A stretch of 63,851 nt of DNA, counting the filler, from an uncultured Methanosarcinales archaeon (GTDB lineage Archaea; Nanobdellota; Nanobdellia; Woesearchaeales; CAYSVS01), in assembly GCA_964434475.1 (NCBI GenBank). It is 6 parts of 6 records of this genome, joined end to end, with 100 filler letters (N's around TTAATTAATTAA, not from the genome) between each part and the next. Parts side by side here need not be neighbours in the genome. Positions count along the whole stretch, not along the records: positions 23,725 to 35,197 come from CAYSVS010000043.1; 5 more parts are not named here. One strand, 5' to 3'. The position numbers and the translations under genes are program-made. The notes under the pieces were generated by a model that was not told the origin of the DNA, searched no databases, and saw only the letters and a program-made list of their open reading frames with translations. Positions 4,588 to 35,197 of the stretch are shown here, piece by piece; position 1 is the stretch's first letter, and each line of letters starts with the position of its first letter.

Positions 4588-4671
4588 TATTTACTATTAG
4601 TTTAAAAAATATTAATTTATTTTTGTTAAAAAAGAGAATTCCCTATTTATTTTTATAGAAACCTAAATTTT

Positions 4672-6115: not shown

Positions 6116-6253
6116 ATTGAACTTAAGATCGGAATTATCTGAAGTTTTTTGGTGAGGCAGCCCACACCAAAAAATTTGGGAAACATTCGGTAAATCGCTT
6201 GGCGATTTAGCGTAAGCGACCGAATTTTCCTGATAATTCTTCTTATATCCTTT
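6116..6253 (+). repeat. Cassette junction S4 (full form)
   Basis: ATTGAACTTAA-GATCGGAA-TTATC...loop...GATAA-TTCTTC-TTATATCCTTT. Confidence 0.85.
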
Positions 6254-8126: not shown

Positions 8127-8912
8127 ATGAAAATGGTTAAGAAAAAAGATTTAGGACATTTGATATCTCCAGTACTCAAAGCAGGATTGAATATACCTAC
8201 ATGCGGTTTTGCAAGTGCCATAGCAGATGTTTTTGATGCACCATATAAAATTCAAAGACAAAAAAATTTAAAGAATTTTGTTGATCAAACAATAAAAAAA
8301 GTCAAAGAGTTAGATATAAAGATTTCAGAATTAGATTTTAAAAAAAGAATTAATGAGCCTGAATTTATACAATTATTTTCAGAGATTCTTAATAAAATTC
8401 AAAACGAAACAAGAGCGAAGATTAGACAAAGTTACTCAAATTTATTGACTAATTTATTAAAAGAAGAAGCAAATATTAATTTTAATAAAAAAATGTTTTT
8501 CGTAAAACTCTTGGAGAGTCTTAATGAAGATCACATCAAATTGTTGCATATATTTTATAAGGATAGAACTGTAAAAAATAGGCTGAAATTAGATACTTTA
8601 CATCAAAAAATGAACTGTTTCATAAAACGTAAAAGAAAAAAAGGAGACCCTGTTAGTTTATTTACTGATGATAAAAGCAAATATATTACTGTTCTTGATG
8701 AATTAAAAAGCTCATATATAGAATCATTAATAAGTGATTTAGACAGTAAGAAACTAATCAATATTGAAATGGATATTTCTTCGGAAGCTAATGTTGATGA
8801 AAACGAAGGTAATGTTACGGCAGTTGATTCCATTGACAATGATATATCTTATGAATATATGGGAACTCAATTAGGATTTGATTTCTATAAGTCAATAAAA
8901 GAATATAAGTAG
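8127..8912 (+). CDS. Hypothetical protein, possibly Abi-alpha/DUF4393-like (cassette 5)
   Basis: Helical core with YSNLL...FVKLLESLNEDHIKLL and a C-terminal wHTH-like TQLGFDF; resemblance only. Confidence 0.5.
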   Translation: MKMVKKKDLGHLISPVLKAGLNIPTCGFASAIADVFDAPYKIQRQKNLKNFVDQTIKKVKELDIKISELDFKKRINEPEFIQLFSEILNKIQNETRAKIRQSYSNLLTNLLKEEANINFNKKMFFVKLLESLNEDHIKLLHIFYKDRTVKNRLKLDTLHQKMNCFIKRKRKKGDPVSLFTDDKSKYITVLDELKSSYIESLISDLDSKKLINIEMDISSEANVDENEGNVTAVDSIDNDISYEYMGTQLGFDFYKSIKEYK

Positions 8913-9050: not shown

Positions 9051-9139
9051 ATTGGATATAAGACCTATTATGCGCATTTCTTTTTCGCATAATGTGCGTA
9101 TAAAGTGGTTATTGCGCATAATTAGGTCTTAAGTGCTTG
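9051..9139 (+). other. Terminal dif-like recombination site S5 (candidate chromosomal attachment site)
   Basis: ATTGGATATAA-GACCTA-TTATGCGCATT (11-6-11, 9051-9078), an extra half-site TTTTCGCATAA (9082-9092) and an inverted copy ATTGCGCATAA-TTAGGTC-TTAAGTGCTTG (9111-9139). Confidence 0.75.
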
Positions 9140-9714: not shown

Positions 9715-10959
9715 ATGAAACTTATTGCTGATTTACATATTCATGGAAAATACAGCCAGGCAACTTCTAAAGAGCTTACTATCCCTAATTTAGAGAAATG
9801 GGCAAGGATAAAAGGTGTCAACTTGTTAGGCACTGCTGACTTTACACATCCAAAATGGATAGAGCATATCAAAGAAAACCTAGAAGAGGATGACACAGGA
9901 ATATTAAGAACAAAATCAGGCTTTCCTTTCATGTTACAGACAGAGCTTTCTTTAATCTACAGTCAGGGCGGAAGAGGCAGGAGAGTACATAATATTGTAC
10001 TTGCAAAAAATATAGAGGTAGTACAACAAATAACAGAGGCTTTGTTAAAAATAGGAAGAGTAGATTATGACGGAAGACCTATATTTGGCATGAGCTGCAT
10101 TGAATTTGTTGAGCTTATGAAAAGCATAGACAAAGATATAGAGATCATTCCAGCACACATATGGACTCCTTGGTTTTCTGTATTCGGAAGCAAAAGCGGT
10201 TTTGACACATTAGAAGAATGCTTTGGTGACCAACTAAAACATATACACGCATTAGAGACTGGATTAAGTAGTGATCCTGCGATGAACTGGCGTTTATCAC
10301 AATTAGACAAATATACATTGATAAGCAATTCTGATTTACATTCATTCTGGCCTTGGCGTATAGGTAGAGAAGCAAATATTTTTGAAATCAACAAATTAAC
10401 CTATGATAACATACTCCAGATTCTAAAAACAAAAGAAGGCCTAAAAGAAACTATAGAAGTGGATCCTGCATACGGTAAATATCATTATGATGGTCATAGA
10501 AAATGCAATGTGTGTTTAAAGCCGTCAGAAACTATGAAAATGCAAGGTATTTGTCCTGTATGCAAAAGACCATTGACTATAGGTGTAGAATATAGAGTAG
10601 AGCAATTAGCAGACAGACCGCAAGGATTTAAGCCAAGAAATGCTATTCCATTCAGAAGCTTAATACCTTTATCAGATATAATCTCAAAAATAAAAGGAAG
10701 AGCTGTTACAACTAAGACAGTCTGGGCTGAATATAATAACTTGATCAAGGAATTTGACAATGAATATAATATTCTATTGAATGTAGGGTCCCAGGAATTG
10801 AAGAAAGTGTGTGATGAAGAATTAGCAACAGCGATAGTCAATTCTCGATTAGGTAACATCAAAGTACAGCCTGGATTTGATGGTGAATACGGCACACCTT
10901 TATTTTCAGAAAGCGATAAAAGAGTATTTCATAATATAGAAAAAAACAAAAAGGTTTGA
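9715..10959 (+). CDS. Endonuclease Q family PHP-domain protein (TIGR00375-like)
   Basis: ADLHIHGKYS, GTADFTHP, PAHIWTPW, SNSDLHS, GKYHYDGHRKC and CPVC zinc motif. Confidence 0.9.
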   Translation: MKLIADLHIHGKYSQATSKELTIPNLEKWARIKGVNLLGTADFTHPKWIEHIKENLEEDDTGILRTKSGFPFMLQTELSLIYSQGGRGRRVHNIVLAKNIEVVQQITEALLKIGRVDYDGRPIFGMSCIEFVELMKSIDKDIEIIPAHIWTPWFSVFGSKSGFDTLEECFGDQLKHIHALETGLSSDPAMNWRLSQLDKYTLISNSDLHSFWPWRIGREANIFEINKLTYDNILQILKTKEGLKETIEVDPAYGKYHYDGHRKCNVCLKPSETMKMQGICPVCKRPLTIGVEYRVEQLADRPQGFKPRNAIPFRSLIPLSDIISKIKGRAVTTKTVWAEYNNLIKEFDNEYNILLNVGSQELKKVCDEELATAIVNSRLGNIKVQPGFDGEYGTPLFSESDKRVFHNIEKNKKV

Positions 10960-12250: not shown

Positions 12251-13690
12251 ATGAATATAAAAAGAATAGTCATAAGTATTGTATTGTTGGTGTTGCTTTC
12301 AAATATTGTTTTAGCTCAGAATACTGTACATCTTTATTTTTTCTATGGTGAAACATGTCCTCATTGTGCGCAGGAAGAGCTTTTTTTAGATGAGTTAGAA
12401 GATAAATATCCAGATCTAAAAGTGCACCATCATGAAGTGTATTATGATAGTCAGAATCAAAAACTGTTTAAGGAGATGGCTCAAGCTTTTGGTACAAGCG
12501 CAAGAGGTGTTCCAACAACATTTGTTAATGATAAAGTTTGGGTAGGGTATGCGCCAGCAAGAGCTTCAGAGATTGAAGAAAGAGTAAAAACATGCATAGA
12601 ACAAGGTTGTATTGATCCTTTGGAAAAGATAGGTAAAACATCAAGCAATGGTGAAATTTCGACAGATATGGAGACTGTTGTATCTGTCGAGCATTCTGGA
12701 AATGGCAATGAGCAAGAAGATAAAACTAAAGAATCTACAGATACAAATGTAGAACTGCCTTTTATTGGACAAGTAGATGCTTCAAAGATGTCTCTGCCTG
12801 CATTAACTTTGATCTTAGGATTTATAGACGGATTTAATCCTTGTGCTTTTTTTGTTCTGTTATTTTTGTTGAGTATGCTAATATATGCAAAATCAAGAAA
12901 GAGAATGCTTATAATAGGTGGAACTTTTGTATTATTTTCAGGCCTGATATATTTTATATTCATGGCAGCTTGGCTTAATATTTTTTTGCTTATTGGCTCA
13001 TTGAAAATGGTTACAACAATAGCGGGAACTGTTGCTGTAATAATCGCTGTAATTAATATTAAGGATTTCTTTTTATTCAATAAAGGTATAAGCTTATCTA
13101 TTTCTGATGAGGCAAAGCCAAAGCTGTTTCAGAGAATGAGAAATCTTCTTAGGGCAGATTCAATGACTAATATGTTGATAGGAACTATAGTCTTGGCAGT
13201 TGCAGCTAATATGTATGAATTGCTGTGCACAGCAGGATTTCCTATGGTGTTTACAAGGATCTTGACATTGAATAATTTTTCATCTTTTACATATTATATG
13301 TATTTAGTGTTTTATAATATTGTATATGTGGTGCCTTTGGCTGTTGTGGTAGGAGTATTTACTAAAACATTGGGTGCGAAAAAAATGACAGAATGGCAGG
13401 GCAGAGTGCTAAAATTATTGTCAGGGATGATGATGCTTTCTTTAGGATTGCTGCTATTGTTTGTGCCTGAGCTTCTGAATAATGTATTTATATCAGTCGG
13501 AGTCATAGCTTTTGCATTGTTTATGACATGGATAATAGTAACTGCAACAAAAGATGCATTGAAAGAACATGCTCAAGAAGATGAATGTGTTAAGATGTGC
13601 AAGGAAAATAAGAAAACAGACAATGATAAAAAGGATAAGGATTTAAACAAAGATGAGGAAGAAAAAGATAAATTTTCAAAGAAAGATTGA
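12251..13690 (+). CDS. Thioredoxin/glutaredoxin domain fused to DsbD/CcdA-like membrane domain
   Basis: Signal peptide, CPHC, DGFNPCA and ELLCTAGFP motifs; multiple TM helices. Confidence 0.85.
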   Translation: MNIKRIVISIVLLVLLSNIVLAQNTVHLYFFYGETCPHCAQEELFLDELEDKYPDLKVHHHEVYYDSQNQKLFKEMAQAFGTSARGVPTTFVNDKVWVGYAPARASEIEERVKTCIEQGCIDPLEKIGKTSSNGEISTDMETVVSVEHSGNGNEQEDKTKESTDTNVELPFIGQVDASKMSLPALTLILGFIDGFNPCAFFVLLFLLSMLIYAKSRKRMLIIGGTFVLFSGLIYFIFMAAWLNIFLLIGSLKMVTTIAGTVAVIIAVINIKDFFLFNKGISLSISDEAKPKLFQRMRNLLRADSMTNMLIGTIVLAVAANMYELLCTAGFPMVFTRILTLNNFSSFTYYMYLVFYNIVYVVPLAVVVGVFTKTLGAKKMTEWQGRVLKLLSGMMMLSLGLLLLFVPELLNNVFISVGVIAFALFMTWIIVTATKDALKEHAQEDECVKMCKENKKTDNDKKDKDLNKDEEEKDKFSKKD

Positions 13691-23724: not shown

Positions 23725-23778
23725 TGTACTGGAGAATATAGATGCGATGATTTCAAGAATTATTAGCTATGCACATAC
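23725..23778. mobile_element. Repeated element end (probable IS terminus)
   Basis: 54 bp identical to 35299-35352; terminal AGCTATGCACATAC also at 12189-12202; all lie at contig starts. Confidence 0.7.
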
Positions 23779-23820
23779 GTTTCTTATATTGTAACAATAT
23801 ATAAATGTTGGTTACAAAAA

Positions 23821-24318
23821 ATGAAACTAATTAATTTCAAAGAAAATAAGTTTTCAAAAGACATATTTTTAGTACTTACTGCACTAATGGGTTTTATCTT
23901 CATAGTATCCTTTAGCGCATTATATGTCTCAGATGCAATAAAAAACAACAATGCTTGCGGATGTGTTATACCCATACCCTATATGATACTGATGCTTTCC
24001 TCTTTAGGATTGTTCATAGGAAGTTTAGCATTTTACATACTGATATCAAAACATCTTAATGAAAAAAAAGAGATAAGTAAAAACATAGAATTAACATTAA
24101 AGTTTCTTGAAAAAAATGAAAAAAGCATAGTAAGGTCACTTATAAAAAACAAAGAGCCTATACAGCAAAGCAAACTCGAATCTGAAACAGGAATGCATAA
24201 GGTTAAGATCCATAGGACATTAGACAAGCTTATTCAAAAAGGCATAATAGAAAAATTACAGGAAGGTAAGATAAATAAGATAAAACTAAAAGAAGAGCTA
24301 AAAGATATATTCAATTGA
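23821..24318 (+). CDS. Membrane-anchored winged-helix transcriptional regulator
   Basis: Two TM helices with CGC, then IQQSKL...KVKIHRTLDKLIQKGIIEK. Confidence 0.8.
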   Translation: MKLINFKENKFSKDIFLVLTALMGFIFIVSFSALYVSDAIKNNNACGCVIPIPYMILMLSSLGLFIGSLAFYILISKHLNEKKEISKNIELTLKFLEKNEKSIVRSLIKNKEPIQQSKLESETGMHKVKIHRTLDKLIQKGIIEKLQEGKINKIKLKEELKDIFN

Positions 24319-24663
24319 TTAGCTAAAATCCTCTATTGCTTTCATTACAAGCTGGACATACATCAAAGCTGGTCCACCGCCCATCAATGCTGCAATCTTA
24401 CATACATCCATTATCTCCTCTTTCTTTGCGCCTACATCCAATGCATTCTTCACATGAAATGCGATACACCATTTACAGTGCGCTGTGACAGACAAAGCTA
24501 TTGCTATCAACTCTTTCTGCTTCTTGTCCAGACCGTTAGGCTTTTCTGCTGCTTCCATAAAAGCCATAAACCCTTTCATAAATTCAGGCTCTTGTTTACC
24601 TAACTTATCCAAACTTTCATTGACCTCATCCAATAATTTTTTCATATCTTCCATAATCCTCAC
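24319..24663 (-). CDS. Carboxymuconolactone decarboxylase/AhpD family protein
   Basis: KELIAIALS...HCKWCIAFH...MGGGPA. Confidence 0.9.
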   Translation of the reverse strand: MRIMEDMKKLLDEVNESLDKLGKQEPEFMKGFMAFMEAAEKPNGLDKKQKELIAIALSVTAHCKWCIAFHVKNALDVGAKKEEIMDVCKIAALMGGGPALMYVQLVMKAIEDFS

Positions 24664-24751
24664 CTCACATATAAATCAATAAAAATTCCTGTTGTCCCAA
24701 CATAGCTATCAATCCAAAATACATTATCCCCAAAAAAGTATTGCTTACCAT

Positions 24752-25591
24752 TTATTTTACCTCTTCAACTATAAAATCTGCAATCTGATTAAAAATTTCT
24801 TTATATTTTTCATCATATGCAACAATAGGTTTTAGTGCAGTTAAAGCATTTACAAAATTTTTATCATAAGGTATTTTAGCTAAAACATCTTCTTTATAAT
24901 ACCCTGGATTAATATCGTATTTATTCAATATTACGGAATAAGGAATATTGAAATGCTCTACAATAGTCAATACTCTTTTCAAATCAGATATCCCTGAAGG
25001 TGTTGGCTCTGTAACAGCAATAACATAATCGCTTCCAACAATCGAAGCTATCACAGGACAGCCAATACCTGCAGCAGCATCTATTATCATATAATCCGCA
25101 TCTTGTTGTTTTGCCAAATCCTTAACTTTAGCAACAATCTTACCGCTGCCTGACTGCCCTACCTCCAACTGTCCTGTAATTATAGGAAATCCATATTTAG
25201 TTGTTGCTGTACCTATTTTTGCATTTTTTACATCAACAAGTTTTATCGCGTTGAAAGGACAAACCACTGGACATACTCCACAACCCTCGCATCCAAATTC
25301 TTTCAAATAAGGCTTGCCGTCTTTCCATCCTATCGCATCAAAATAACATATGTCTTTGCATTTACCGCATCCTGTACATTTGTCCATATCAAACTTAGCA
25401 ATCTGCTTTACAGATATAGAATGTTCATCCTTAAATTCTTCTATCCCTAAAATTAAAGCAAGATTAGCAGCATCAACATCACAGTCAGCACAAACTACCT
25501 TTTGGGTTTTTGCCAAAGTAACAGCTAATGAAGCAGTTATACTGCTTTTCCCCACTCCTCCTTTGCCTGACAATACAGTTATCTGTTTCAT
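24752..25591 (-). CDS. MinD-superfamily P-loop ATPase with inserted 4Fe-4S ferredoxin domain
   Basis: SGKGGVGKS, DCDVDA, two CxxCxxCxxxC motifs. Confidence 0.92.
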   Translation of the reverse strand: MKQITVLSGKGGVGKSSITASLAVTLAKTQKVVCADCDVDAANLALILGIEEFKDEHSISVKQIAKFDMDKCTGCGKCKDICYFDAIGWKDGKPYLKEFGCEGCGVCPVVCPFNAIKLVDVKNAKIGTATTKYGFPIITGQLEVGQSGSGKIVAKVKDLAKQQDADYMIIDAAAGIGCPVIASIVGSDYVIAVTEPTPSGISDLKRVLTIVEHFNIPYSVILNKYDINPGYYKEDVLAKIPYDKNFVNALTALKPIVAYDEKYKEIFNQIADFIVEEVK

Positions 25592-26400
25592 CTCAAATCC
25601 CTTGCTATCTTAACTATAGATTCATGCTCTATTGGCTTTGCGTTTGCATAAGCATCAACTATATCTTTACTGTAAGGAACTTTTGCTAATATTTCTTTGT
25701 CAAGCGCTTGCTTGACTAGATAATCATCTCCGTCATATCTATTTAGCACAACGTCATACTTTGTTCCTAGTTTGTTCAACAGACCAAGTATTAATTTTAA
25801 ATCGTGCACACCCAAAGGAGTTGGTTCTGTAATAGCCAAAACATAATCACAGTCCACCAATGCACTAATTACATCGCAATGCGTTCCTGCAGCAGTATCT
25901 ATAATAATAAAATCATAAACATCTTCATCTATTTTCTCTTTGACTGCAGAAACAACAAACTCAGAAACAGACTCATTTATCTTTAGTTCGCCTGATAAAA
26001 AATCAATATTATATTTGCTGCCTTTGTATATACTGCCTATGTCTTTTTTTGTCCAGGATATTGCATCAACAGGACATTCTAGAAAGCAGGCACCACAGCC
26101 ATTGCATTGCTGCTCCATAAATATGGGGTTCTGACCTTTGACTGAAACTATCGCATTTTGCCTGCACACCTTGCCACATCTTCCGCACTTTGTACATATA
26201 TCATAATTCCATCCAGGAATCCTTTGTTCAACGTCTGCAAACTTCTGTCTTTCTATACCCAAAAGAAGATGATCATTCGGACAATCAACATCCATATCAA
26301 CAAGCAATACTTTTTTAGTTTTCGCCAACTCAAACGCCAAAGCAGTAGCTATGGTTGATTTGCCCGTTCCGCCTTTTCCGCCAGTTATACCTATCTTCAT
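25588..26400 (-). CDS. MinD-superfamily P-loop ATPase with inserted 4Fe-4S ferredoxin domain
   Basis: GGKGGTGKS, DMDVDCPN, two ferredoxin motifs. Confidence 0.92.
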   Translation of the reverse strand: MKIGITGGKGGTGKSTIATALAFELAKTKKVLLVDMDVDCPNDHLLLGIERQKFADVEQRIPGWNYDICTKCGRCGKVCRQNAIVSVKGQNPIFMEQQCNGCGACFLECPVDAISWTKKDIGSIYKGSKYNIDFLSGELKINESVSEFVVSAVKEKIDEDVYDFIIIDTAAGTHCDVISALVDCDYVLAITEPTPLGVHDLKLILGLLNKLGTKYDVVLNRYDGDDYLVKQALDKEILAKVPYSKDIVDAYANAKPIEHESIVKIARDLR

Positions 26401-27158
26401 TCGGAATTATCGCCTTCTTCTTTTTCAACACCATAACCCTTACCTTCTCCAGGAGAGCATTTACTTTCGCCTTGCTCAAGCTTATCTTTCATGTAATCTT
26501 TAACAACATCATCAACCTTGCCGCTCACGCCAACAACAATCTCAATACCAAAACTTTTGAACATATCAACAGCCATAGGTCCAGCACCTCCTGCTATAAC
26601 AACATCAACACCTTTTTCCTTAAAAAATTCAGGAAGATAACCTTGCTTATGGCCTGGGTTCGCCAGTTCTTGTTTATTTACTATCGTATTATCTTCAATC
26701 TCAAATAATGTAAAGACAGGACATCTGCCAAAATGCGCAGATACTTGATCATTGTCTGCAGCTACCGCTATTGTTTTACTTTTTTTTGCTGTAAGTTTAG
26801 GCATAGTATGTCCTGGAACAGTAACACCTAATGGTTTAAGCTTTTCTGCCCTGAAATTTTCGATAGCATTTTTCACGCTTCCTTCAGCCTGATAAACTTT
26901 CAAGCCAAGCTGGCTTAAAACCCTATATGCGTTAGGCCCAAGATTTCCTGTGATAATCGCATCAGGCTCAAGATCTCCAACAACCTGCCCAGCCTGTATA
27001 CCTGCACCATGACCTTGTAAAGCAGCTTGATTTTCTACAGCTTCAAAGTCTTCTGTTTCTGTATTATAGACAAGGAAATATTTACACCTTCCAAACCTTG
27101 GATCAACATCACTATCAAGCTTATTTTCTGTTGCAGTTATCACTAGTTTCATTTTCAA
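26397..27158 (-). CDS. NifB/NifX-family protein (two tandem domains)
   Basis: RFGRCKYF and HFGRCPVF repeats. Confidence 0.88.
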   Translation of the reverse strand: MKMKLVITATENKLDSDVDPRFGRCKYFLVYNTETEDFEAVENQAALQGHGAGIQAGQVVGDLEPDAIITGNLGPNAYRVLSQLGLKVYQAEGSVKNAIENFRAEKLKPLGVTVPGHTMPKLTAKKSKTIAVAADNDQVSAHFGRCPVFTLFEIEDNTIVNKQELANPGHKQGYLPEFFKEKGVDVVIAGGAGPMAVDMFKSFGIEIVVGVSGKVDDVVKDYMKDKLEQGESKCSPGEGKGYGVEKEEGDNSE

Positions 27159-27445
27159 TGCTCCTCTTCTATATTTTTAACGACATCCTTGTTCAGATTA
27201 TCTTCAAGTTCTTTAGCCATAGCTTTATCGTGTTTTCTTACCCATTCCAAAAGCATAGCCATATGTTCTTTTTCTTCATTAGCATTATGCTGCAATATTT
27301 TTTTAAGCTCTTCGTCTTTTGTAGCATCTACCCTTTCTTCATACCAATTGATGGCTTCTATCTCCTCAATCATGCTTTGCCTTGCTCTTTCAAGATCTTT
27401 AGTCCTTTCACTCAAGTTTTCTCTTCCTTCATGTTCTCCAGTCAT
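27155..27445 (-). CDS. Short ferritin-like protein (encapsulin-cargo type)
   Basis: RARQSMIEEIEAINWY...HNANEEKEH. Confidence 0.88.
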   Translation of the reverse strand: MTGEHEGRENLSERTKDLERARQSMIEEIEAINWYEERVDATKDEELKKILQHNANEEKEHMAMLLEWVRKHDKAMAKELEDNLNKDVVKNIEEEH

Positions 27446-27759
27446 TTTTCATCCTCCAAAAATGTTTTAACAGCATCCTTTACGGTTATATCCTGCACCA
27501 TAATGTATTTGATTTTCTTTTCATCAAGAATTGAAGTCATATTTGGACCAAACTTACCGCCAATAACAACATTAACTTCCTTGTTCGCCAGCATCTGCGC
27601 AACACTTACGCCTGCTCCTCCTCCTCCAACAACAAAGGGGTTCTTTATTGCTTCTATCAATTTGTCGTCTTCAAAAATCAAATAAAATTCAGCTCTGCCG
27701 GTTATAGGGCTCACTAAAGCTTCTTCCTTATCGCTTGAACTAGCTATAGCTATCTTCAT
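27442..27759 (-). CDS. NifB/NifX-family protein
   Basis: MKIAIAS...GRA...NPF..GGGAG...KFGPN. Confidence 0.88.
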   Translation of the reverse strand: MKIAIASSSDKEEALVSPITGRAEFYLIFEDDKLIEAIKNPFVVGGGGAGVSVAQMLANKEVNVVIGGKFGPNMTSILDEKKIKYIMVQDITVKDAVKTFLEDEK

Positions 27760-28262
27760 TCTTCAACCTCCATAAGTTTTTCAACTGTCCATCCCTGAAG
27801 CATGGAAACAAAAACCATCACAATAGTTAATACAACAGCATAAGCCAAGCCAAAATAATATATGAACAAAGGCAGTAATGCAGGCTTTATAGCTCTATTG
27901 TATAGGAAAGTTGCTATCAAACCATTTTTTACCTTATGCTTCTGCAGTTCATTAAGCAAAGGATACCACATATATATCGGACCAGTTGATATTATTCCTG
28001 TTATCGTAGCATAAAAATATCCTAAAATTCCTGAATCCTTGCCTAGATATTTAACTAAAGTATCTGGCTTTGTAAAATAATTGATTACAAACATCAAACA
28101 GAATATGAATAATAATATTGGAATAATCTTTATCAATATATTTTTGAAAAAATATAAGCTTGAAACAACAGCTTCAAAATTAAATATTCCAACAACTGCA
28201 TAAAACAATATAACTATCAAAAAGAAATACAATCCTGTCCTGCTTTGCTCGCTTGTTCTCAT
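27756..28262 (-). CDS. Predicted permease subunit
   Basis: Hydrophobic; GIISTGPIYMWYPLL motif. Confidence 0.8.
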   Translation of the reverse strand: MRTSEQSRTGLYFFLIVILFYAVVGIFNFEAVVSSLYFFKNILIKIIPILLFIFCLMFVINYFTKPDTLVKYLGKDSGILGYFYATITGIISTGPIYMWYPLLNELQKHKVKNGLIATFLYNRAIKPALLPLFIYYFGLAYAVVLTIVMVFVSMLQGWTVEKLMEVEE

Positions 28263-28681
28263 AATATCGCCATTATTCCTACAGTTATTATAGCAGTCAA
28301 TATTGAAAATAAAAATGCTATTATGTTCCGTGTTATTGCAAACTTCTTTCCAAGAAGCACAGATTCTGCAGGCAATTGGACCAATCCTACAGTAACCCAC
28401 GCTACAATAAATGCTGTGACAGCTAATAAAGAAACTCCTTGAGCAAGCATCTCTCCTCCTAAAATGTAACTAGTCACAGGATTTCCTGCTAATATACTGC
28501 CCAAAGAACTGCCTATCAAAGGATCAAATATATTACTTCCAGTAAATAATGTTGTGTATGCCTGCTTGGGAATCAATGTATTCGCCAAGCTAACTAAAAG
28601 TATTACTCCTAATATAATAGGCAATATTTTCCATAAAGGCATTACTGATTTTTTTAGTGCTTGCTTAAATTCTTGATTCAT
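28259..28681 (-). CDS. Predicted permease subunit
   Basis: GSILAGNPVTSY, WVTVGLVQLPAE. Confidence 0.8.
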   Translation of the reverse strand: MNQEFKQALKKSVMPLWKILPIILGVILLVSLANTLIPKQAYTTLFTGSNIFDPLIGSSLGSILAGNPVTSYILGGEMLAQGVSLLAVTAFIVAWVTVGLVQLPAESVLLGKKFAITRNIIAFLFSILTAIITVGIMAIL

Positions 28682-28986
28682 TCTAATTCAGCTAGTCGTT
28701 TCTTTATGTCATCAAGTTCTTCTTTAAGTAATTTTTGTTCTTCCTCTAAAGCTTTTGCGTCTTGTTCAAGATATTGCTTTTCCTGCTCTTTTGTCGGCTG
28801 AATAGGTTGTACAGGCTGCACTGGCTGCATCAGCATCCTTCCGAAACTTCCTCTGAAACCCATACCTCTACCAAAGCCTCTTCTAGAGTTTGCAAATCCA
28901 GGCATATCATAGCCATTACAATATCCTAATCCTCTTCCAGTTCTTGGACCCATTCTGTTTGGGCCAGATGAATCTCCTCTTGGCAT
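28678..28986 (-). CDS. DUF5320 family protein
   Basis: MPRGDxxGP..GPRTGRGLGYC, Gly/Arg-rich segment, C-terminal coiled coil. Confidence 0.85.
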   Translation of the reverse strand: MPRGDSSGPNRMGPRTGRGLGYCNGYDMPGFANSRRGFGRGMGFRGSFGRMLMQPVQPVQPIQPTKEQEKQYLEQDAKALEEEQKLLKEELDDIKKRLAELE

Positions 28987-29025
28987 TTTTATCTACCTCC
29001 TAAATATTTATTTGTTGAAATGTGT

Positions 29026-29568
29026 CTAGGCTCTTGTCATCATCTTGCCGCACTTAGGACATTTTCTGTCAACACAAGGCGTTCCTACTATATGTGCAGT
29101 TTCATAACCGCATTCAGGACATTTGCATGATCCTCCAGGACCTTCTGCAAAACCTTGCATCCTGCCTCTGCCGCCTGACTGTAGTCTACCGACACCTCTA
29201 CCAGCACCAGCAATTCTACCTCTTAATCCTCTTCCAGTTCTAGGACCTCTTCCTGCAGGTCCTGTTTGATCTCCTCTTGGCATTTTTATCATACCTCCTT
29301 CAATTTTTATTACTTTTCCATTGATAATAGCGTCAGCAACCTTTTGCCTTGCTCTTGCCAATGTTCTTTGAAATGTACTTTGATGAATATCCATCTTTTT
29401 TGCAGATTCTACTTGGCCTAAATTTTCATAATCTTTTAACCTTATAGCTTCATACTCGCCAACAGTCAATATCACTTCCTGCAATGCAGATAAAGGCACT
29501 GCCTGCGGCTTAAAATAAACATGATTAGGCATCCGCATTATTCTTCTATATCGTCTTGGTCTTACCAT
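29026..29568 (-). CDS. DUF134 domain DNA-binding protein with C-terminal zinc motif
   Basis: MVRPRRYR, EYEAIRLKD, TFQRTLARAR, IEGG; CKCPECG...CPKCG. Confidence 0.9.
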   Translation of the reverse strand: MVRPRRYRRIMRMPNHVYFKPQAVPLSALQEVILTVGEYEAIRLKDYENLGQVESAKKMDIHQSTFQRTLARARQKVADAIINGKVIKIEGGMIKMPRGDQTGPAGRGPRTGRGLRGRIAGAGRGVGRLQSGGRGRMQGFAEGPGGSCKCPECGYETAHIVGTPCVDRKCPKCGKMMTRA

Positions 29569-29683
29569 AATTTCACCATTTTCTTTCCACATTATGCATA
29601 TATATGCAGAACTATTTAAAGATTATGGTTTTTGTTTATAAATAGAGAAAGATTTAAAAGAATCAATAAAACATTGGTAAAAT

Positions 29684-29845
29684 ATGAAATGCGAAATATG
29701 CAATGCAAAACTTGCTGAAACTTTTTTGGGCAAAATAAAAGGCACTATAGTAAAGGATGAGAAAGGAAAAAAGCATGCGATATGCTTTGACTGCCAGAAG
29801 AAGTTCAAAAACAAAGCAGAAACACTAGAAGCTTTGAAGAAATAA
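29684..29845 (+). CDS. Small CxxC...CxxC zinc-binding protein (53 aa; not in the ORF track)
   Basis: MKCEICNAKLAETFLGKIKGT...AICFDCQKK. Confidence 0.7.
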   Translation: MKCEICNAKLAETFLGKIKGTIVKDEKGKKHAICFDCQKKFKNKAETLEALKK

Positions 29846-29859
29846 TTTTTATTCTCCAT

Positions 29860-29932
29860 GCCTCTGTAGCATAGTAGCTATTGCGTCGGTCTCGTAAACC
29901 GAAGGTCGGGAGTGCAACTCTCCCCAGAGGCT
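29860..29932 (+). tRNA. tRNA-Thr(CGT)
   Basis: Acceptor stem GCCTCTG/CAGAGGC, anticodon arm TCGGT-CTCGTAA-ACCGA, T arm GGGAG-TGCAACT-CTCCC; no encoded CCA. Confidence 0.92.
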
Positions 29933-30025
29933 TATATCCCTACAGTATAGATCTTTTTTTGTAGTTTACACATAAAATAAGACAAAAAATGTTTATATCA
30001 TATTATTTCTTATAAAAACAATAAA

Positions 30026-30240
30026 ATGAAACAAACAAAAAGATTAGGAGATGTCAAATATTTTATTAATCGAGTAACTCAAGAGATTGAATTACTTCTG
30101 ATGGATAAGTTATATAATTCAGAAAAACTCCACAAAATGCTTCGTGAAAGAAGAATCTACAGCTTCGCTCCTATAAAAAAGAACTAGGCAAAAAGTCAGT
30201 TAAGAAAGCAGCTTAGAGACTGCTTTGACTATGCTCCACA
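30026..30240 (+). pseudogene. Degraded IS5-like transposase fragment
   Basis: Reads MDKLYNSEKLHKMLRERRIYSFAPIKKN*AKSQLRKQLRDCFD, resembling the DKGYD region of DDE transposases, with an internal stop. Confidence 0.5.
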
Positions 30241-30264
30241 TAAAACCTGATTAAACGAAGATTT

Positions 30265-30292
30265 ATTTCGCATAATAGGTGTTATATTCAAT
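30265..30292 (-). other. Second dif-like recombination site
   Basis: Minus strand ATTGAATATAA-CACCTA-TTATGCGAAAT; 24/28 identical to S5. Confidence 0.78.
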
Positions 30293-30428
30293 TTTTGGAT
30301 TACTTATTTTTAGAAAGAGAGAGGGGCTTAGTCCTTCGGACATTTTGCCTTTTACTTCGTAAAAGAATTTATAGGAAGGGGCGTCAAGATAGTCTTTTTC
30401 TGCGAAAAAGAAATTTATTAGGGGCGTT

Positions 30429-30920
30429 TTAAACATAAAAATAGATTATTAAACTCCATAAAATCAAAATCAAATTTGTTATTGATGTGTAAAACCAAGG
30501 AAATTTATATTTTCTTATTCTACAAAACCAAATATAAACTAGCAAAATCCACTCTACAAATATCAATATTAAATATTCTTTTACAATAGGAAAAACCCAA
30601 TTCAAAAATAAACCAAAAAGCAAAACTAAGAAAAAACCTACTACTAACTCTAACAGAAAAAACACAAAACCTTTCTCTTTCGTAGAAAATAGATGATTTC
30701 CAAATATTTTACTATAACCTTTACCACCCTCATACACAATTCCCGGAATCATCGCTCCAATTGTTAATGTAAAAAACCATACTAAAAATGTCAATAAAAC
30801 ATTTATATGAGAAATAATTGTATCTTTCATTAACCATAAAAGTAAAACATAAACTCCAGTAATGAGAAAAATAACAAGTTCAGTCCACCATTTAATTTTT
30901 TCTTTATTATTTTTTCCCAT
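30429..30920 (-). CDS. Hypothetical membrane protein (about 5 TM helices)
   Basis: Hydrophobic 163-aa ORF, last gene of the RM operon. Confidence 0.7.
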   Translation of the reverse strand: MGKNNKEKIKWWTELVIFLITGVYVLLLWLMKDTIISHINVLLTFLVWFFTLTIGAMIPGIVYEGGKGYSKIFGNHLFSTKEKGFVFFLLELVVGFFLVLLFGLFLNWVFPIVKEYLILIFVEWILLVYIWFCRIRKYKFPWFYTSITNLILILWSLIIYFYV

Positions 30921-30927
30921 AGTGATC

Positions 30928-31410
30928 TTATAATTTCGGCGTCAAACTGGAATAATCAATACAATCTCTCGCTTTATCCCACTTCGCTATTTGCATAAAT
31001 TTATTTGTTTTTGTTCCAAACTTCAATAAATCTTCTCTTTTCAAGACATTAATAATATGTGATAATCTGCCTAATCCTTTAGAAGAAACTAAAAAAGATT
31101 CTATTGGATCTATTAATTGAGTGTATCCCCAAAGCTGTCCTAAATCTTTGAGAGTTAAATCTGTGTCTTTCACTTCAACAAAAACAAGTTTAAACTCATC
31201 GCCTCTTTTCAAAATTCCTACAATATCTACTTTTATTTGTAAGCCTATTGCTTCTTTACATTGGATGCCTTTACTTTTCAAAACAACATCTAAGTTTCTT
31301 CTTGAAGTTTCATAAGTAGTCTGAACTGTATAACCTTTGTATTTATCAGTTAAGTAATTCTGCAACCATTCTTTTATTTCAGGATAAAGTTTTTCTTCTT
31401 CTTTACTCAT
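30928..31410 (-). CDS. Small PD-(D/E)XK nuclease-fold protein
   Basis: EEKLY...VDIVG...FVEVK...GQLxGY motif. Confidence 0.7.
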   Translation of the reverse strand: MSKEEEKLYPEIKEWLQNYLTDKYKGYTVQTTYETSRRNLDVVLKSKGIQCKEAIGLQIKVDIVGILKRGDEFKLVFVEVKDTDLTLKDLGQLWGYTQLIDPIESFLVSSKGLGRLSHIINVLKREDLLKFGTKTNKFMQIAKWDKARDCIDYSSLTPKL

Positions 31411-32314
31411 CGTAACCTAACTCCTTTGACATATCTTTCCAACTATCAAAATGTTTTCTAACTTTTGTGGGTAATTTCGTACTTTTTTCTTCTGGATGTT
31501 TTGGTTTTTTCCTGTTTATTTCCTTAGTCTCCCAATAAAATTTATGATGTGCTTCTGAAATTGGTTTATCCTTATATTTTTTAGAATCTTTTGATGCTTC
31601 TTTCCAATTTTTTCTGTTTAAGTCAGCAAATCTCTTTAGAAGCTTATTTTTATGGTCAATATTAAAACCTACTTTTTCAAATTCTTCTGCCCATACTTTT
31701 ATTTGATGTTCTTTATTCCAAAATTCTTTTGAACCTTCATTATATTTTTTCAAATTTGGATCAACTATGTTTGGATGAGCAAACCTAATTGTTTGAACTG
31801 GAACATCTAATTCTTTTAGCAAATTCGCAATATCTATGCACAAATCCCAATTAACCATTATTTCAACATAAACTCTATTTTCATAATCTTTCCATGCAAC
31901 ATTACTTTTTCTTATATGAGCTGTTACGTCGGCAATTCCTCTTAAAAATTCTAATTTTATGTCTTTTGTTGCAGAAAATATTTCTGTTGGTATTCTTACA
32001 TCTCTCCAGCTTACATGGTTTTTCAAATATGTGTTAATAGTTCTTATCAAATAATCTCCATTTGGTTTTGAAAAAGAAATATGGGCGATGTTTGGTCTTG
32101 AGGTGTCCCATTCCATATCTGCTCCAACAAGAATTTTTAATCTTCCAACAATATCTAATAAACTTGACTTTACTGATTGTTGGGTATTCTCTCCTTCAAT
32201 CACTAAATTTTTATGTGGAATATCTATGATAATCTCCGTATCTCTATTTCCTCTAATTATTTGTCCTTTCCCGACAATCATTCCCAATAAATAAGCTATA
32301 TCTGCATTTAACAT
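31403..32314 (-). CDS. LAGLIDADG-like two-motif protein with degenerate catalytic residues
   Basis: IAYLLGMIVGKG and IPxxIF...EFLRGIADVTA. Confidence 0.6.
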   Translation of the reverse strand: MLNADIAYLLGMIVGKGQIIRGNRDTEIIIDIPHKNLVIEGENTQQSVKSSLLDIVGRLKILVGADMEWDTSRPNIAHISFSKPNGDYLIRTINTYLKNHVSWRDVRIPTEIFSATKDIKLEFLRGIADVTAHIRKSNVAWKDYENRVYVEIMVNWDLCIDIANLLKELDVPVQTIRFAHPNIVDPNLKKYNEGSKEFWNKEHQIKVWAEEFEKVGFNIDHKNKLLKRFADLNRKNWKEASKDSKKYKDKPISEAHHKFYWETKEINRKKPKHPEEKSTKLPTKVRKHFDSWKDMSKELGYDE

Positions 32315-32318
32315 TTTT

Positions 32319-33119
32319 TCACTTCCTAAATATGAGTATGAACTCATGAACTTTATTTACTCTAAATACAAATGGATAACCAAGAGGACGCATATTATTA
32401 TACTCTTTTTGTCTATCCCAAATAATCATATCATCTAATTCAAAACCAATTTCTTGCATTTTGTTTATCATATCCATATGAAATGGATAAAACTTTGCTT
32501 TTTTTCTAATGTCCATTACCACAACGATACAATATTTTCCTTTCTTTAAAACTTTATAGACGCCTTCAAATCCTGTTTTGAGTTTATTTAAGAATTCTTG
32601 ATAATCTGCGATATTTCCCAAGTCATCTTTTGAATTACTATAATTTCTTATTTCTTTTCTATCGGCTGACCTTTTGGCGTTTAGAATATCCCAATATGGC
32701 GGAGATGTAATAACTAAATCAACAGAATCTTCTTTTAATGTTTTAGGAATATCAAAAATAGTTTTATTATAAATTTCTGGCTTAATTAAATCCTCTGGCT
32801 TTTGTTCTAAATTTAACTGAGTTTCTTTTATTCTATTTTCAGATAATTTAATGTATTCTTTAGAAAGTTCAAATCCTATTCCTTTTCGACCTAATTTATA
32901 GGCAGATACGACCGTACTTCCACTTCCTAAAAACGGATCTAAAACAACTTCCCCTTTATTTTTAGTGTGAATTTGAATTAATCTTGATGTTAATTGAGTT
33001 GGAAACATAGCAGGATGTTTTAATTTCCTTTCTCCGTTGGTTTTTTCAATATCTTTCCAAATACTAAAAGAGTATTGTAACCATTCTTTCCCTGTTAAAT
33101 TATTCATTCGTTCTCCCAT
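32319..33119 (-). CDS. Amino-DNA methyltransferase (probably N4-cytosine)
   Basis: HPAMFP, DPFLGSGST, TSPPY. Confidence 0.9.
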   Translation of the reverse strand: MGERMNNLTGKEWLQYSFSIWKDIEKTNGERKLKHPAMFPTQLTSRLIQIHTKNKGEVVLDPFLGSGSTVVSAYKLGRKGIGFELSKEYIKLSENRIKETQLNLEQKPEDLIKPEIYNKTIFDIPKTLKEDSVDLVITSPPYWDILNAKRSADRKEIRNYSNSKDDLGNIADYQEFLNKLKTGFEGVYKVLKKGKYCIVVVMDIRKKAKFYPFHMDMINKMQEIGFELDDMIIWDRQKEYNNMRPLGYPFVFRVNKVHEFILIFRK

Positions 33120-33120
33120 T

Positions 33121-34788
33121 TTACCACAAACTTTTTTCAGACATTATTTGCTTTAATGCCATGTTTATTTTATCTTGTTCAGTTTTAGTTAATCCATATA
33201 GCTTATAGACCTTTTTATCCAATTCAGGCAATAATTTTTTTATATTACCTTGATTAATTTCTCTAACAAGACTAATAATCTCTTTTTGTTTTTCTTTAGT
33301 AACTTTTTTAATTGGAATTTTGCCTAAATAAACTTTATCTGTGTGCATGGTTAATTTTGATTTATTGAAAACTGCATACATCAAATAGAAATTTATCAAT
33401 TTAGAATTTAACAAGCCATAGATATAATCTAATTCGTAAGATTTGTCTTTAAGAATAATGTTACTTACAGTATCAAAATTCAAATTTCCTTTTTCGTCTA
33501 TTGCGGAAATAATCCCTGCTTCTCTTGAAAAGATATTCTGAAGAATTATTTTTCTCTTTTGAAGTTCTCCTAATTTCGAAGAATCATTCATTAAACATTT
33601 AGCATCAATAAAAAAACCATTTGTAAAAAAAGACTTTGAAATATCATTACCCTTAATAATTGAAACATTTTCCTTGCCCTTTGATTTAGATATAATCTTA
33701 GAATTTGGACTTATAGAAATTCCTCTAAAAATGTCTGCAATATTTTCTAAATTGTTTCCTTTAATTTTATCTATCAACTCATAATAAGACTTATCTTCAA
33801 ACATCAAAAAAGTATTATATTTTTGAAAAGTTTTTTGAGGAACAAAAAATTCTTTATCCTTATCAAATAACTTGATTAAAACCTTATTATTTTGTATTTG
33901 TTCTTTTTTAGTTGTTTTTTGTATGAATAAAACAACCTGTTCTCCTCGAACATCTTTAAAACAAGTACTTAAATCAAGTATATGTAATATTTTGGAATTA
34001 TTTAATAAAAATTCCCTTAATCTTGAATATGAGTTTACTCTAATTAATGTTTTAGGCAAAACAAAAGCCATCACTCCACCCTCTTTGAGAAGCTCATAAG
34101 ATTTAGCAATAACTAAAGAAGCAGCATTTGTGCTACCATTAGCAATATGAGAGAAGAAAGATTCAGAAACATCATAATCTCTTTTATTCTTTAAAGTTAC
34201 ATAAGGGGGATTTCCGATTATAAAATCAAAGCCGCCCTCATCAAGAATTTCCGAAAATTGTTTTTTCCAATCAAAAGCTTTTTTATCCATAAGTTTATTC
34301 TCAACAATAGAATTCCCTATTTTAATATTTTTTTCAAGAATGTTTAGTGAGTTTGAATCTTGACCATTTCTTAACCATAAATTTATTCTTGCTATCTTTG
34401 TTGCAGAATTATTTAAATCAACACCAAAGATGTTATTTATTGCATTAGGATTCTTTTGTTTTAAATGATTATATGCAGTTACTAAAAAAACACCACATCC
34501 ACAAGTTGGATCTAAGATTTTAGAATCTGCTTTAATATCAAGAAAATTGACCATATAATTAACGATTTCTTGCGGAGTGTAAAACTGCCCTAAATCCTTT
34601 TTTTCTTGTTCTCTTATTAATTTTTCAAATAAAACTCCAAGGGTATCTTCTTTAATCTTTGCTATTTGTTCTTGTTCAATTTTTTTAACTACTTTTTTAA
34701 TGATTTTATCTTGATATGGTAAGGACTCCAAAGTATCTCTACTTAAATGAAAATTCTCTTGCGTTGGATGAACTAAAATAGTGTCCAT
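33121..34788 (-). CDS. N6-adenine DNA methyltransferase (gamma class) with TaqI-like TRD
   Basis: GQFYTP, LDPTCGCGVFL, GNPPY, GLLNSKL. Confidence 0.92.
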   Translation of the reverse strand: MDTILVHPTQENFHLSRDTLESLPYQDKIIKKVVKKIEQEQIAKIKEDTLGVLFEKLIREQEKKDLGQFYTPQEIVNYMVNFLDIKADSKILDPTCGCGVFLVTAYNHLKQKNPNAINNIFGVDLNNSATKIARINLWLRNGQDSNSLNILEKNIKIGNSIVENKLMDKKAFDWKKQFSEILDEGGFDFIIGNPPYVTLKNKRDYDVSESFFSHIANGSTNAASLVIAKSYELLKEGGVMAFVLPKTLIRVNSYSRLREFLLNNSKILHILDLSTCFKDVRGEQVVLFIQKTTKKEQIQNNKVLIKLFDKDKEFFVPQKTFQKYNTFLMFEDKSYYELIDKIKGNNLENIADIFRGISISPNSKIISKSKGKENVSIIKGNDISKSFFTNGFFIDAKCLMNDSSKLGELQKRKIILQNIFSREAGIISAIDEKGNLNFDTVSNIILKDKSYELDYIYGLLNSKLINFYLMYAVFNKSKLTMHTDKVYLGKIPIKKVTKEKQKEIISLVREINQGNIKKLLPELDKKVYKLYGLTKTEQDKINMALKQIMSEKSLW

Positions 34789-34928
34789 TATTTAACCTCT
34801 TTTTTTACTTCTTTTTCCATATAATTTTGAAATTGTTTGGAAACAATCCATCCTTTTTTATCGCACTGCTCTTTAAATTTATCATAAATTTCAGAATCCA
34901 CAAATAAAGTTACTCTTTTTTTAGCCAT
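34788..34928 (-). CDS. Ribbon-helix-helix regulator (46 aa; not in the ORF track)
   Basis: MAKKRVTLFVDSEIYDKFKEQCDKKGWIVSKQFQNYM; TAATG overlap with the MTase start. Confidence 0.75.
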   Translation of the reverse strand: MAKKRVTLFVDSEIYDKFKEQCDKKGWIVSKQFQNYMEKEVKKEVK

Positions 34929-34939
34929 CATCATCCCCT

Positions 34940-34957
34940 TTATGTAAGCTTACATAA
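34940..34957. promoter_or_regulatory. Perfect 18-bp palindrome, candidate operator of the RM operon
   Basis: TTATGTAAGCTTACATAA between a TATA-like tract and the RHH start. Confidence 0.55.
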
Positions 34958-35197
34958 GATTATTAACAAACATCTATATAAATCTATCGCACACTTGTCT
35001 AGTGGTAAGTGTAAAAGACGCCCCTAAATGTTCTTTTCAGAAAAGAACCAAAACAAGACGCCCCTTCTATCTTCTTTTTTTAGAAAAAAGAAGCAAAAAA
35101 TCTGACGCCCCTCTCTCGTCCTTCGGACATATACACTCCCTGCGGTCGAATTTATCAGTAATCCAAAAACTCTAAAATTTTCCTACGGAACGTTGCA

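Follow-up and report, generated by a model that had tools for sequence, protein, structure and literature searches.

What sets the limits of a block of restriction-modification (RM) genes in the genome of an uncultured archaeon, and how might such a block move? The question is raised by the final 4.9 kb of contig CAYSVS010000043.1 in the metagenome-assembled genome (MAG) GCA_964434475.1, where a putative defense operon reaches the contig end on one side and, on the other, runs into a 28-bp sequence that resembles a dif site, with a tRNA-Thr gene not far beyond it. The window that we analyzed is a 63.8-kb stretch made of six contig pieces of this MAG joined by N linkers; the operon lies at the end of piece 3 (23725-35197), which stops where its contig does, at position 35197. 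The GC content of the window is 32%, and an L10e-type ribosomal protein and the NOG1 GTPase are encoded elsewhere in it, in agreement with a placement among Woesearchaeota-like DPANN archaea. A reading of the DNA that preceded our analysis (the original prediction) had proposed that the operon is a cassette of the same family as those arrayed on contig 1 of the window and that it occupies a second dif-like site. Our results point, with a probability of about 0.78, to the block from 30282 to beyond 35197 being a single mobile cassette whose boundary falls inside the dif-like site. The cassette would be a member of an integron-like capture array of the Xer/dif type and hold the place next to the insertion site of the array.

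Ends of the defense cassette

A metagenome scan with the 314-aa product of one of the genes in the block returned 18 related loci (L001 and following). Six copies, namely those of the window, L001, L002, L003, L004 and L006, are set in the same frame of end sequences, and L005 has a diverged version of that frame. From 35197 down to 30928, L001-L004 and L006 share 86-93% nucleotide identity with the window (L004 from 35156, where its contig starts), and L005 shares 35100 to 30925 at 86%. The trailer that closes the cassette (30430-30280) matches the relatives at 78-82%, and on the tRNA side, below 30273, none of the 18 related loci has a match. All six framed copies end in ...AGTAATCCAAAA-ATTGAATATAA-C and then continue in six different ways: the window with CACCTA-TTATGCGAAAT, L004 with CACCTA-TTAGGTGTACT, and L001, L002, L003 and L006 with four different junction cores and then another cassette, whose leader in L001 and L003 is like that of the RM cassette. 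L005 ends in ATTGAATAGAA-CAACTA-TTAAACGCAGT beside SRP54. The same unit, with the same end repeats, was thus found on five metagenome contigs, as expected if the block is a cassette.

The end defined by these copies lies within the dif-like site ATTGAATATAA-CACCTA-TTATGCGAAAT (30265-30292, minus strand), whose 28 bp follow the 11-6-11 layout of arm, spacer and arm. This sequence has one exact match in the window against 0.00 expected, and the closest other match is S5, the dif-like site that terminates the cassette array of contig 1 (9051-9078, plus strand), which served as the comparison site; S5 differs from it by 4 mismatches (24/28 identical) and the runner-up by 8, so that the minus-strand site and its likeness to S5 stand as first described. 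The left arm ATTGAATATAA (30282-30292, minus strand) forms the 3' terminus of the cassette and is the same in all six copies, which diverge directly after ...TAA-C. Because the sequences part at the border between arm and spacer, the left arm appears to belong to the cassette. The crossover would fall between the left arm and the spacer, leaving to the chromosome only the attI-like part at 30265-30281 (minus strand), with the spacer CACCTA at 30281-30276 and the right arm TTATGCGAAAT at 30275-30265. Judged from these alignments, an apparently complete dif site is made up of a cassette half and a chromosomal half. The chromosomal half matches the GACCTA-TTATGCGCATT of S5 at 14 of 17 positions (9 of 11 in the right arm), and its spacer is the same as in the terminal site of L004, which lies ~85 nt from a gene for a XerA-like enzyme. 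The original prediction had placed the boundary at the dif-like site and not at the nearby tRNA-Thr gene; the six copies that end at the left arm bear this out and refine it to the arm-spacer border.

Further dif-like sequences were seen around the terminal sites. Two inverted pieces stand just after S5, at 9079-9139 (TTTTCGCATAA-TGTGCG-... at 9083 and ATTGCGCATAA-TTAGGT-CTTAAGTGCTT at 9112), the one at 9083 bearing a right-arm variant of the site at the RM cassette, and the terminal site of L005 is likewise accompanied by a head-to-head dif-like pair (12440-12500). In L007, the stretch at 10618-10645 (minus strand) could be a dif-like site but was AT-rich and unsupported, and a generic scan for 11-nt arms that allowed up to 2 mismatches gave too much noise in AT-rich DNA; neither was used.

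At its 5' end the contig breaks in the loop of a hairpin, of which the first half (CTAAAATTT...AAATTTTAG) occupies 35173-35197 on the minus strand. Past this loop the relatives read ...TGCA-CTAAATTTTAGG-...-GAATATAACA, and a loose end from sequencing run X1, the probable source sample, reads ...GTTGCACTAAATTTTAGG, which is the second half of the leader hairpin; the loose ends in X1 are only 29 and 35 nt long and do not reach the junction. A GA...TC-type junction had been predicted within tens of base pairs of the contig end. The relatives support its distance and correct its letters: TG-TTATATTC (GAATATAACA on the plus strand) is found 36 nt past the counterpart of base 35197 in all four that extend there (L001, L002, L003 and L006), and the junction reads CA...TG. 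A folded junction precedes TG-TTATATTC, and more genes or cassettes stand further upstream in L002, L003 and L006, as had also been anticipated. From CATCGC onward L001, L002 and L003 have a common junction core, and their upstream arms and flanks differ (ATTGCACATAA, TTCGACATAA and ATTGTATTTAA). Divergence after the arm at the 3' end, together with the sharing of the core from CATCGC onward at the 5' end, argues for crossovers at the arm-spacer border on both sides.

The cassettes of L001 and L002, which come from different datasets, are 99.94% identical over 5,285 nt (3 differences), and downstream the two junctions diverge at the sixth base past the arm; the pair reads as the outcome of recent movement. 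From the inverted repeat IR1' to the left arm the span is 5,285 nt in L001 and L002 and 4,890 nt in the window, whose full unit, with the missing junction added, is estimated at ~5.1 kb. The unit is somewhat longer than the 4.6 kb of defense genes that had been proposed.

The two ends of the cassette mirror each other. The sequence AGTAATCCAAAAA is present at 30292-30304 (minus strand) and 35157-35169 (plus strand), and has no other exact copy in the window. On the plus strand of the 63.8 kb, AGGGGC is found 3 times, every time within 30322-30425, and 3 of the 5 occurrences of GCCCCT are clustered within 35020-35112. When the leader was aligned with the reverse-complemented trailer, ~150 nt could be matched (116 of 202 columns identical) with a score of 118.5, compared to 46.2 ± 7.2 in 200 shuffles (maximum 67). 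These results confirm the inverted-repeat ends, which the original prediction had listed as four nested repeats, three of them built on AGGGGC(G), and suggest that the ends are more than a few short repeats, namely imperfect mirror images of ~150 nt. The leader (35017-35172, minus strand; 86-93% identical in L001-L006) contains, in plus-strand terms, CGCCCCT at 35019, 35059 and 35106, the mini-hairpin GTCCTTCGGAC at 35118-35128, a motif in common with cassette 4 of contig 1 at 35121-35152 and IR1' at 35157-35169. The trailer (30293-30431, minus strand; 78-82% homologous in L001-L004 and L006) contains, in the same terms, IR1 at 30293-30304, IR2 at 30317-30327, GTCCTTCGGAC at 30331-30341, a hairpin at ~30349-30365 and AGGGGCG at 30377-30383 and 30420-30426. 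A search for repeats within the island yielded, as its 25 longest pairs, low-identity AT-rich matches that were not used.

The motifs said to be shared with cassette 4 were found again, each with two matches in the window and 0 expected: the leader motif AATTCGA-N7-GAGT-N3-TATGTCCGAAG at 4894-4925 (plus strand) and 35121-35152 (minus strand), and the trailer motif TTTAC-NAA-GTAAA-N-TGTCCGAAGGACTA at 6047-6080 (plus strand) and 30329-30363 (minus strand). The common leader and trailer motifs and a common junction architecture indicate that the RM cassette is of the same family as the contig-1 array. In L005, the RM unit is preceded by a cassette whose leader and trailer are those of window cassette 3.

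Sequencing runs X1 to X4, compared as Logan contigs, revealed an excess of end sequences. The end modules (30292-30515 and 34996-35197) had 4-18 times the depth of the cargo in the four runs; in X1 the two end bins had depths of 43 and 153, compared with about 10, and in X2 of 635 and 1849, compared with about 100. The ends are therefore multi-copy in the source community and in related ones. A joint that skips the cargo (30372 to 35027) had a depth of 117.7 in X1, with like joints in X2-X4; its matching sides are repeat ends of 23-34 nt, which makes it weak evidence, and cargo-less or shorter frames of this cassette family seem abundant in these communities. In some contigs the two ends meet with no cargo between them, or with a smaller number of AGGGGCGTC-plus-hairpin units. 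Diverged copies of the genes were also present in other runs from groundwater, aquatic and lake samples.

Junction hairpins and a XerA-like recombinase

Each cassette is bounded on its 5' side by a hairpin junction made of two copies of the left arm around a core of 10-170 nt, and the right arm is found at the terminal site only. Going inward from the left arm, a junction has two bases and a 2-nt bulge (TC or AC) before its stem begins; the stem encloses a variable core, and after its complementary half two more bases lead to the inverted arm. In 8 of the 9 distinct junction cores the stem has at least 8 bp and starts directly after the 2-nt 5' bulge, and its sequence is different in all 8, so that pairing is kept while the letters change. 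Folded as DNA, the L001 junction reached -28.4 kcal/mol (z -7.65) and junction J4 of the window -31.8 (z -6.73). The arms match within one cassette: the RM copies have GAATATAACA at both ends, the L005 cassette GAATAGAACA, contig-1 cassette 5 GGATATAAGA, and cassettes 3 and 4 of the same contig GAACTTAAGA; in L005 the arm pair GAATAGAA / TTCTATTC is compensating. Junctions of the RM family read ATAAC...GTTAT and those of contig 1 TTAAG...CTTAA. The spacers share (C/G)-A-N-C, and their first base is G in S5 and in all four contig-1 junctions, and C in all 7 tabulated junction rows of the RM family as well as in its terminal sites.

The cassette ends are also biased toward one strand. Along 5.46 kb of them, read on the arm-to-spacer strand, CGAAG occurs 26 times versus 3 for CTTCG, and C-GNA-G 52 times versus 8 for its complement, whereas the whole window has 19 and 21 copies of CGAAG and CTTCG. 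C(GAA)G loops of the d(GCGAAGC) type are unusually stable DNA mini-hairpins. If the loops counted here are as stable as that, the bias favors a folded single strand of DNA.

Long junction cores carry a hairpin loop GAGGCARCCCACA, then AATTTGGR and a second hairpin, both on contig 1 of the window (4668-4850 and 6112-6252) and in distant metagenomes (L001 1-120 and L003 1881-1995). Short junctions such as J1 and J2 of the window are without the loop motif and the second hairpin. The loop motif may be a site for an accessory protein. A unit of ~230 nt between two junctions of L003 (1650-1881), with no open reading frame (ORF), looks like an empty cassette. Searches of the junctions and ends of the window, L001, L003 and L006 against Rfam found no family besides tRNA; two microRNA rows with E values of 0.3-0.5 are chance matches.

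A candidate enzyme is encoded in L004, where ATTGAATATAA-CACCTA is followed within ~85 nt by the gene for a 264-aa tyrosine recombinase. The protein matches the archaeal XerA model NF040815 over positions 4-261 of 263 (205.9 bits) and the integron-integrase model TIGR02249 in two split stretches (177.8 bits, cutoff 265). The end-to-end match to XerA and the split match to TIGR02249 suggest that the enzyme lacks the insertion specific to IntI. Inspection of its translation by eye indicates that the catalytic Arg, the His-x-x-Arg motif and the Tyr are kept.

What the loci display, a unit with exact ends in varied contexts, hairpins that covary and, in a relative, a XerA-like gene beside a like site, can be accommodated in the following scheme. 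A cassette would consist, in order, of the folded junction core, the inverted left arm, the leader, the cargo with its promoter, the mirror trailer and the left arm. Crossovers that fall where the left arm meets the 6-bp spacer would join cassettes to their neighbors, and the left arm of the last one would abut the resident CACCTA-TTATGCGAAAT to give the appearance of a complete 11-6-11 dif site. The junction hairpin, with its 2-nt bulge, would probably form in single-stranded DNA of the arm-spacer strand, where the two arm copies would pair into a duplex bound by a XerA-type tyrosine recombinase of the host. The enzyme would then swap one pair of strands with the double-stranded terminal site on the side of the left arm, where the two spacers match, and replication would resolve and complete the exchange, in the way that CTXphi integrates (PMC3442271) and that attC recombines with attI (PMC4792948). 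We infer both the enzyme and its single-stranded substrate, and consider catalysis by XerA on a folded strand reasonably likely.

Several observations weigh against the capture of the block by such a route. The 5' end of the window copy was derived from relatives, the contig stopping before the junction, and neither an excised circle nor an empty site was seen. The RM operon is found without a cassette frame in L007, and at 73% identity beside a 415-aa integrase and a tRNA-Ser in L009; from these two loci it appears that the genes travel by other routes as well. The L004 recombinase falls below the NCBIfam cutoff for XerA (205.9 vs 220 bits), and a XerA-like gene stands beside one of the two terminal sites in relatives, that of L005 adjoining SRP54 instead. 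The search for xerA and other recombinases was confined to the 63.8-kb window of MAG contigs, in which a tyrosine-recombinase domain was found in none of the 55 ORFs of at least 110 aa outside the island and in none of the 6 cassette ORFs; tblastn with the L004 recombinase also gave no match there (best E 1.5). As for the junctions, Jb of L001 has an imperfect stem, the arms of contig-1 cassette 2 are unmatched, and the evidence for hairpins fits the folding of DNA and of RNA alike. On the question of vehicles, viral contigs were uninformative, with no match to the cassette terminus or the junction-core motif.

Other origins and the number of landing sites

The anatomy of the junctions invites comparison with a classical integron cassette that resides in a cluster of attC sites lacking integron-integrases (CALIN) and is moved by an IntI encoded elsewhere. 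The imperfect palindromes, extrahelical bases and variable central part are hallmarks of attC, the RM family has the conserved triplets ...ATAAC / GTTAT..., and a survey of archaeal integrons reports 539 attC sites and 6 IntI genes in 75 genomes, Nanoarchaeota included (Ghaly et al., 2022; PMC9668308), so that arrays such as these may be among its CALINs. We nevertheless find this origin unlikely. The sole recombinase beside a terminal site, that of L004, has 264 aa, matches the XerA model from end to end and splits the match to TIGR02249; the insertion site is 11-6-11 and dif-like; the contig-1 junctions have AAG/CTT and not AAC/GTT; and each cassette has mirror-image ends, which integron cassettes do not. 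Those same ends recall a cargo-carrying transposon or a frame like that of a miniature inverted-repeat transposable element, in which the ~150-nt terminal inverted repeats would be the ends used by a transposase with a preference for dif-like targets. The length and imperfection of the repeats, the multi-copy end modules and the cargo-less joints, weak as the latter are, agree with this, as does a 53-aa ORF at 30026-30187 (plus strand) with a sub-threshold match to a DDE transposase (E 0.0037, 17.5 bits, cutoff 23). This ORF lies between the tRNA-Thr gene and the dif-like site and may be a transposase remnant. No transposase is found among the ORFs of the unit, however, and its ends show no target-site duplication, one of them being bordered by an arm and the other by a hairpin. 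In every copy the border with a recombinase-type arm falls on the same base, and the inverted repeats are private to each cassette whereas the arms are common, all of which makes a transposon a decidedly improbable source.

We consider it very unlikely that the block is an ordinary genomic island integrated at tRNA-Thr by an integrase of its own, with the dif-like site present incidentally. The tRNA-Thr(CGT) gene (29860-29932, plus strand; predicted with ARAGORN and matched by the Rfam tRNA model at 63.3 bits) is 332 nt away from the site, the diverged RM operon of L009 does neighbor an integrase and a tRNA-Ser, and the other end of the region lies beyond the contig. Against these stand the lack of an integrase from the tRNA to the contig end and of a repeat of the tRNA 3' end elsewhere in the window. 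Moreover, 12 of the 13 related loci scanned for tRNA genes have none, the exception being L009, whose RM genes are without the cassette frame, and the six framed copies end at the arm and not at a tRNA. The tRNA-Thr flank was also sought in relatives through the neighboring DUF134 protein, which had one distant match among genome contigs (53% over 86 residues), in a MAG with a bacterial title, too remote to serve as a relative.

A possibility that we take more seriously, while not favoring it, keeps the cassette biology and dispenses with the second landing site: S5 and the RM site could come from different strains, organisms or replicons binned in one MAG, or one of them could be the sole true dif. 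The window consists of MAG contigs, the sequences around the two sites have nothing in common, and the many related end modules in the source run imply that related strains were present. In addition, a chromosome with two active dif sites should be unstable, given that XerA recombines dif without cofactors in vitro (PMC2958812). On the other hand, the 14/17 identity of the chromosomal halves (9/11 in the right arms) fits one recombinase specificity and one organism, the right arms of L004 and L005 (TTAGGTGTACT and TTAAACGCAGT) being very different, and the first spacer base, G or C, is consistent across each array and would limit recombination between the sites. Two landing sites are thus supported by the likeness of the chromosomal halves, by unrelated flanks and by a spacer difference that would insulate one from the other; that both lie on one chromosome we regard as an even bet.

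Cargo and kinship with known capture systems

The cassette read as a mobile, Xer-type unit above carries six ORFs, all on the minus strand, behind what appears to be a promoter of its own. In the promoter region (34940-34982), a perfect 18-bp palindrome, TTATGTAAGCTTACATAA, spans 34940-34957 and a TATA-like sequence, TTTATATA, 34975-34982; both are conserved in L001-L006 and are a putative operator and promoter, respectively. The first ORF (34785-34934) encodes a 49-aa putative controller of the ribbon-helix-helix type, which is kept upstream of the methylase in L005; it has no family match, and the assignment was read from its sequence by eye. Two methyltransferases follow. The larger, of 555 aa (33121-34788), is an N6-adenine DNA methyltransferase with a TaqI-like specificity domain (PF07669, PF02384 and PF12950; PADLOC MTase_II, 4.2e-42), and the smaller, of 266 aa (32319-33119), is an N4/N6 DNA methyltransferase (PF01555, 9.9e-37; PADLOC MTase_II, 1.2e-51).

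The product of the next gene (31403-32347), the 314-aa protein used in the metagenome scan, had been presumed to be the restriction enzyme of an RM island. It has no match in Pfam, NCBIfam or PADLOC, and its AlphaFold model (pLDDT 90.7) adopts a double LAGLIDADG fold, with Foldseek probabilities of 1.00 to the bI3 maturase, I-AniI, I-DmoI and PI-SceI. The protein carries K27 and T142 at the positions where LAGLIDADG motifs normally have their acidic catalytic residue. It has 833 homologues at E <= 1e-5; among the 120 listed, those with a name are all hypothetical and none has a functional one, and homologues at 75-82% identity are labeled, among the matches listed, as Asgard, Altiarchaeales and Nanoarchaeota. 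The gene is always followed by one for a 160-aa PD-(D/E)XK-like protein (30928-31410), in which D62...E79-V80-K81 is invariant in all 10 aligned homologues. The model of the latter (pLDDT 70.7) has as its best folds the Hjc resolvase 1gef (E 3e-3, probability 0.98-0.99) and restriction-endonuclease-like proteins, all of them weak matches, and the protein is probably the nuclease. Neither of these candidate nucleases matches any restriction-enzyme family model.

The island name is therefore reasonable for the methylases, which make up 2 of the 6 ORFs, while the nuclease side is unconventional and consists of candidates. As in Type II (IIS-like) RM systems, there are two methyltransferases, a small putative controller with a palindromic operator and a PD-(D/E)XK-like protein; unlike in those systems, the partner is a 314-aa protein of the LAGLIDADG fold and the candidate nucleases fall outside the restriction-enzyme models. 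The models raise the possibility of an undescribed RM architecture in which a LAGLIDADG scaffold may act as the DNA reader.

The last ORF (30429-30920) encodes a 163-aa multi-pass membrane protein, so described from the hydrophobic stretches in which its translation is rich, with no family in Pfam, NCBIfam or PADLOC. It fills the slot between the 160-aa gene and the trailer, the only slot exchanged among otherwise conserved copies. The same place holds a PDC-M50A plus ThsB-like pair in L001 and L002 and an unknown 116-aa protein in L006; in L003, L004 and L005 it is taken by unknown proteins of 449, 308 and 286 aa, respectively. Because the 163-aa gene is replaced by others at the same place in relatives, the cassette appears to have an internal exchangeable slot, whose breakpoints coincide with gene borders and show no visible site. 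Defense-type genes are found in other cassettes too: an N4/N6 methylase and an HNH nuclease in L002 (1049-2471), and a DrmA-like fragment and an Abi-alpha-like protein on contig 1 (window 1519-2544 and 8127-8912).

Among capture systems, integrons are similar in having a row of self-contained cassettes split by folded imperfect palindromes with extrahelical bases and covarying stems, in adding new cassettes next to a double-stranded insertion site, and in carrying accessory and defense cargo. In integrons, intI lies upstream of the attachment site and points away from the array; the recombinase gene of L004 likewise adjoins its site and, when the locus is viewed on the other strand, is upstream of it and directed away from the array. 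The differences are that the L004 enzyme is XerA-like and without the IntI insertion, the site is 11-6-11 and dif-like, the hairpin travels at the gene-proximal 5' side, the ends are mirror images of ~150 nt and each cassette has its own promoter. Archaeal dif has the same 11-6-11 layout, and XerA acts on it without cofactors (PMC2958812).

Integrative mobile elements exploiting Xer (IMEX), CTXphi in particular, integrate at dif with the Xer enzymes of the host (PMC3442271, PMC5357621), and resemble the cassettes in several respects. The element boundary lies within an 11-6-11 dif-type site, here in six copies and at the arm-spacer border; the site of attachment folds into a hairpin; the spacers are homologous only on the side of one arm, which fits a single strand exchange followed by replication; and successive elements stack at dif. 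The cassettes differ from them in not being phages, in having no replication or packaging genes, in forming arrays of many small units, in the archaeal host with a single XerA-type enzyme and in the private inverted-repeat ends of each unit. The pdif modules of Acinetobacter also place accessory genes between Xer-type 11-6-11 sites, with more than one dif-like site per replicon, chromosomes included (PMC6449649, PMC12907356). The RM cassette is without complete XerC/XerD-type sites in opposite orientation on its two sides; its internal junctions are hairpins of two copies of one arm around a variable core, and only the terminal site is fully dif-like. A pdif module, by contrast, is bounded by complete double-stranded XerC/XerD sites in alternating orientation. 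Our literature search found no description of Xer-run cassette arrays in DPANN archaea or in bacteria of the candidate phyla radiation (CPR), and the supplements of PMC9668308 might show them as CALINs.

Taken together, these comparisons suggest a wider picture, which we offer tentatively and at rather less than an even chance. DPANN archaea would run an integron-like capture system with a housekeeping-type XerA and chromosomal dif-type sites, bulged folded junctions taking the place of attC and each cassette having private mirror ends. At least two such sites would be insulated by the first spacer base (G on contig 1, C at the RM cassette), each with its own pool of cassettes, and defense systems with their own promoters would move between distant archaeal lineages. 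The small recombinase and the short DNA substrates make the system simple to test at the bench. The same 5.3-kb defense cassette, with 3 differences, different neighbors in two metagenomes and base-exact ends, is evidence that the arrays are active, and a dif site that is half cassette matters for the prediction of dif sites and replication termini in DPANN and CPR genomes. The arrays also bear on the origin of integron integrases from Xer-like enzymes (PMC4792948): should folded substrates be handled here by an Xer enzyme of the plain kind, the IntI insertion would be dispensable for single-strand recombination, and some archaeal CALINs, reported with many attC-like sites and almost no IntI (PMC9668308), may be Xer-run arrays.

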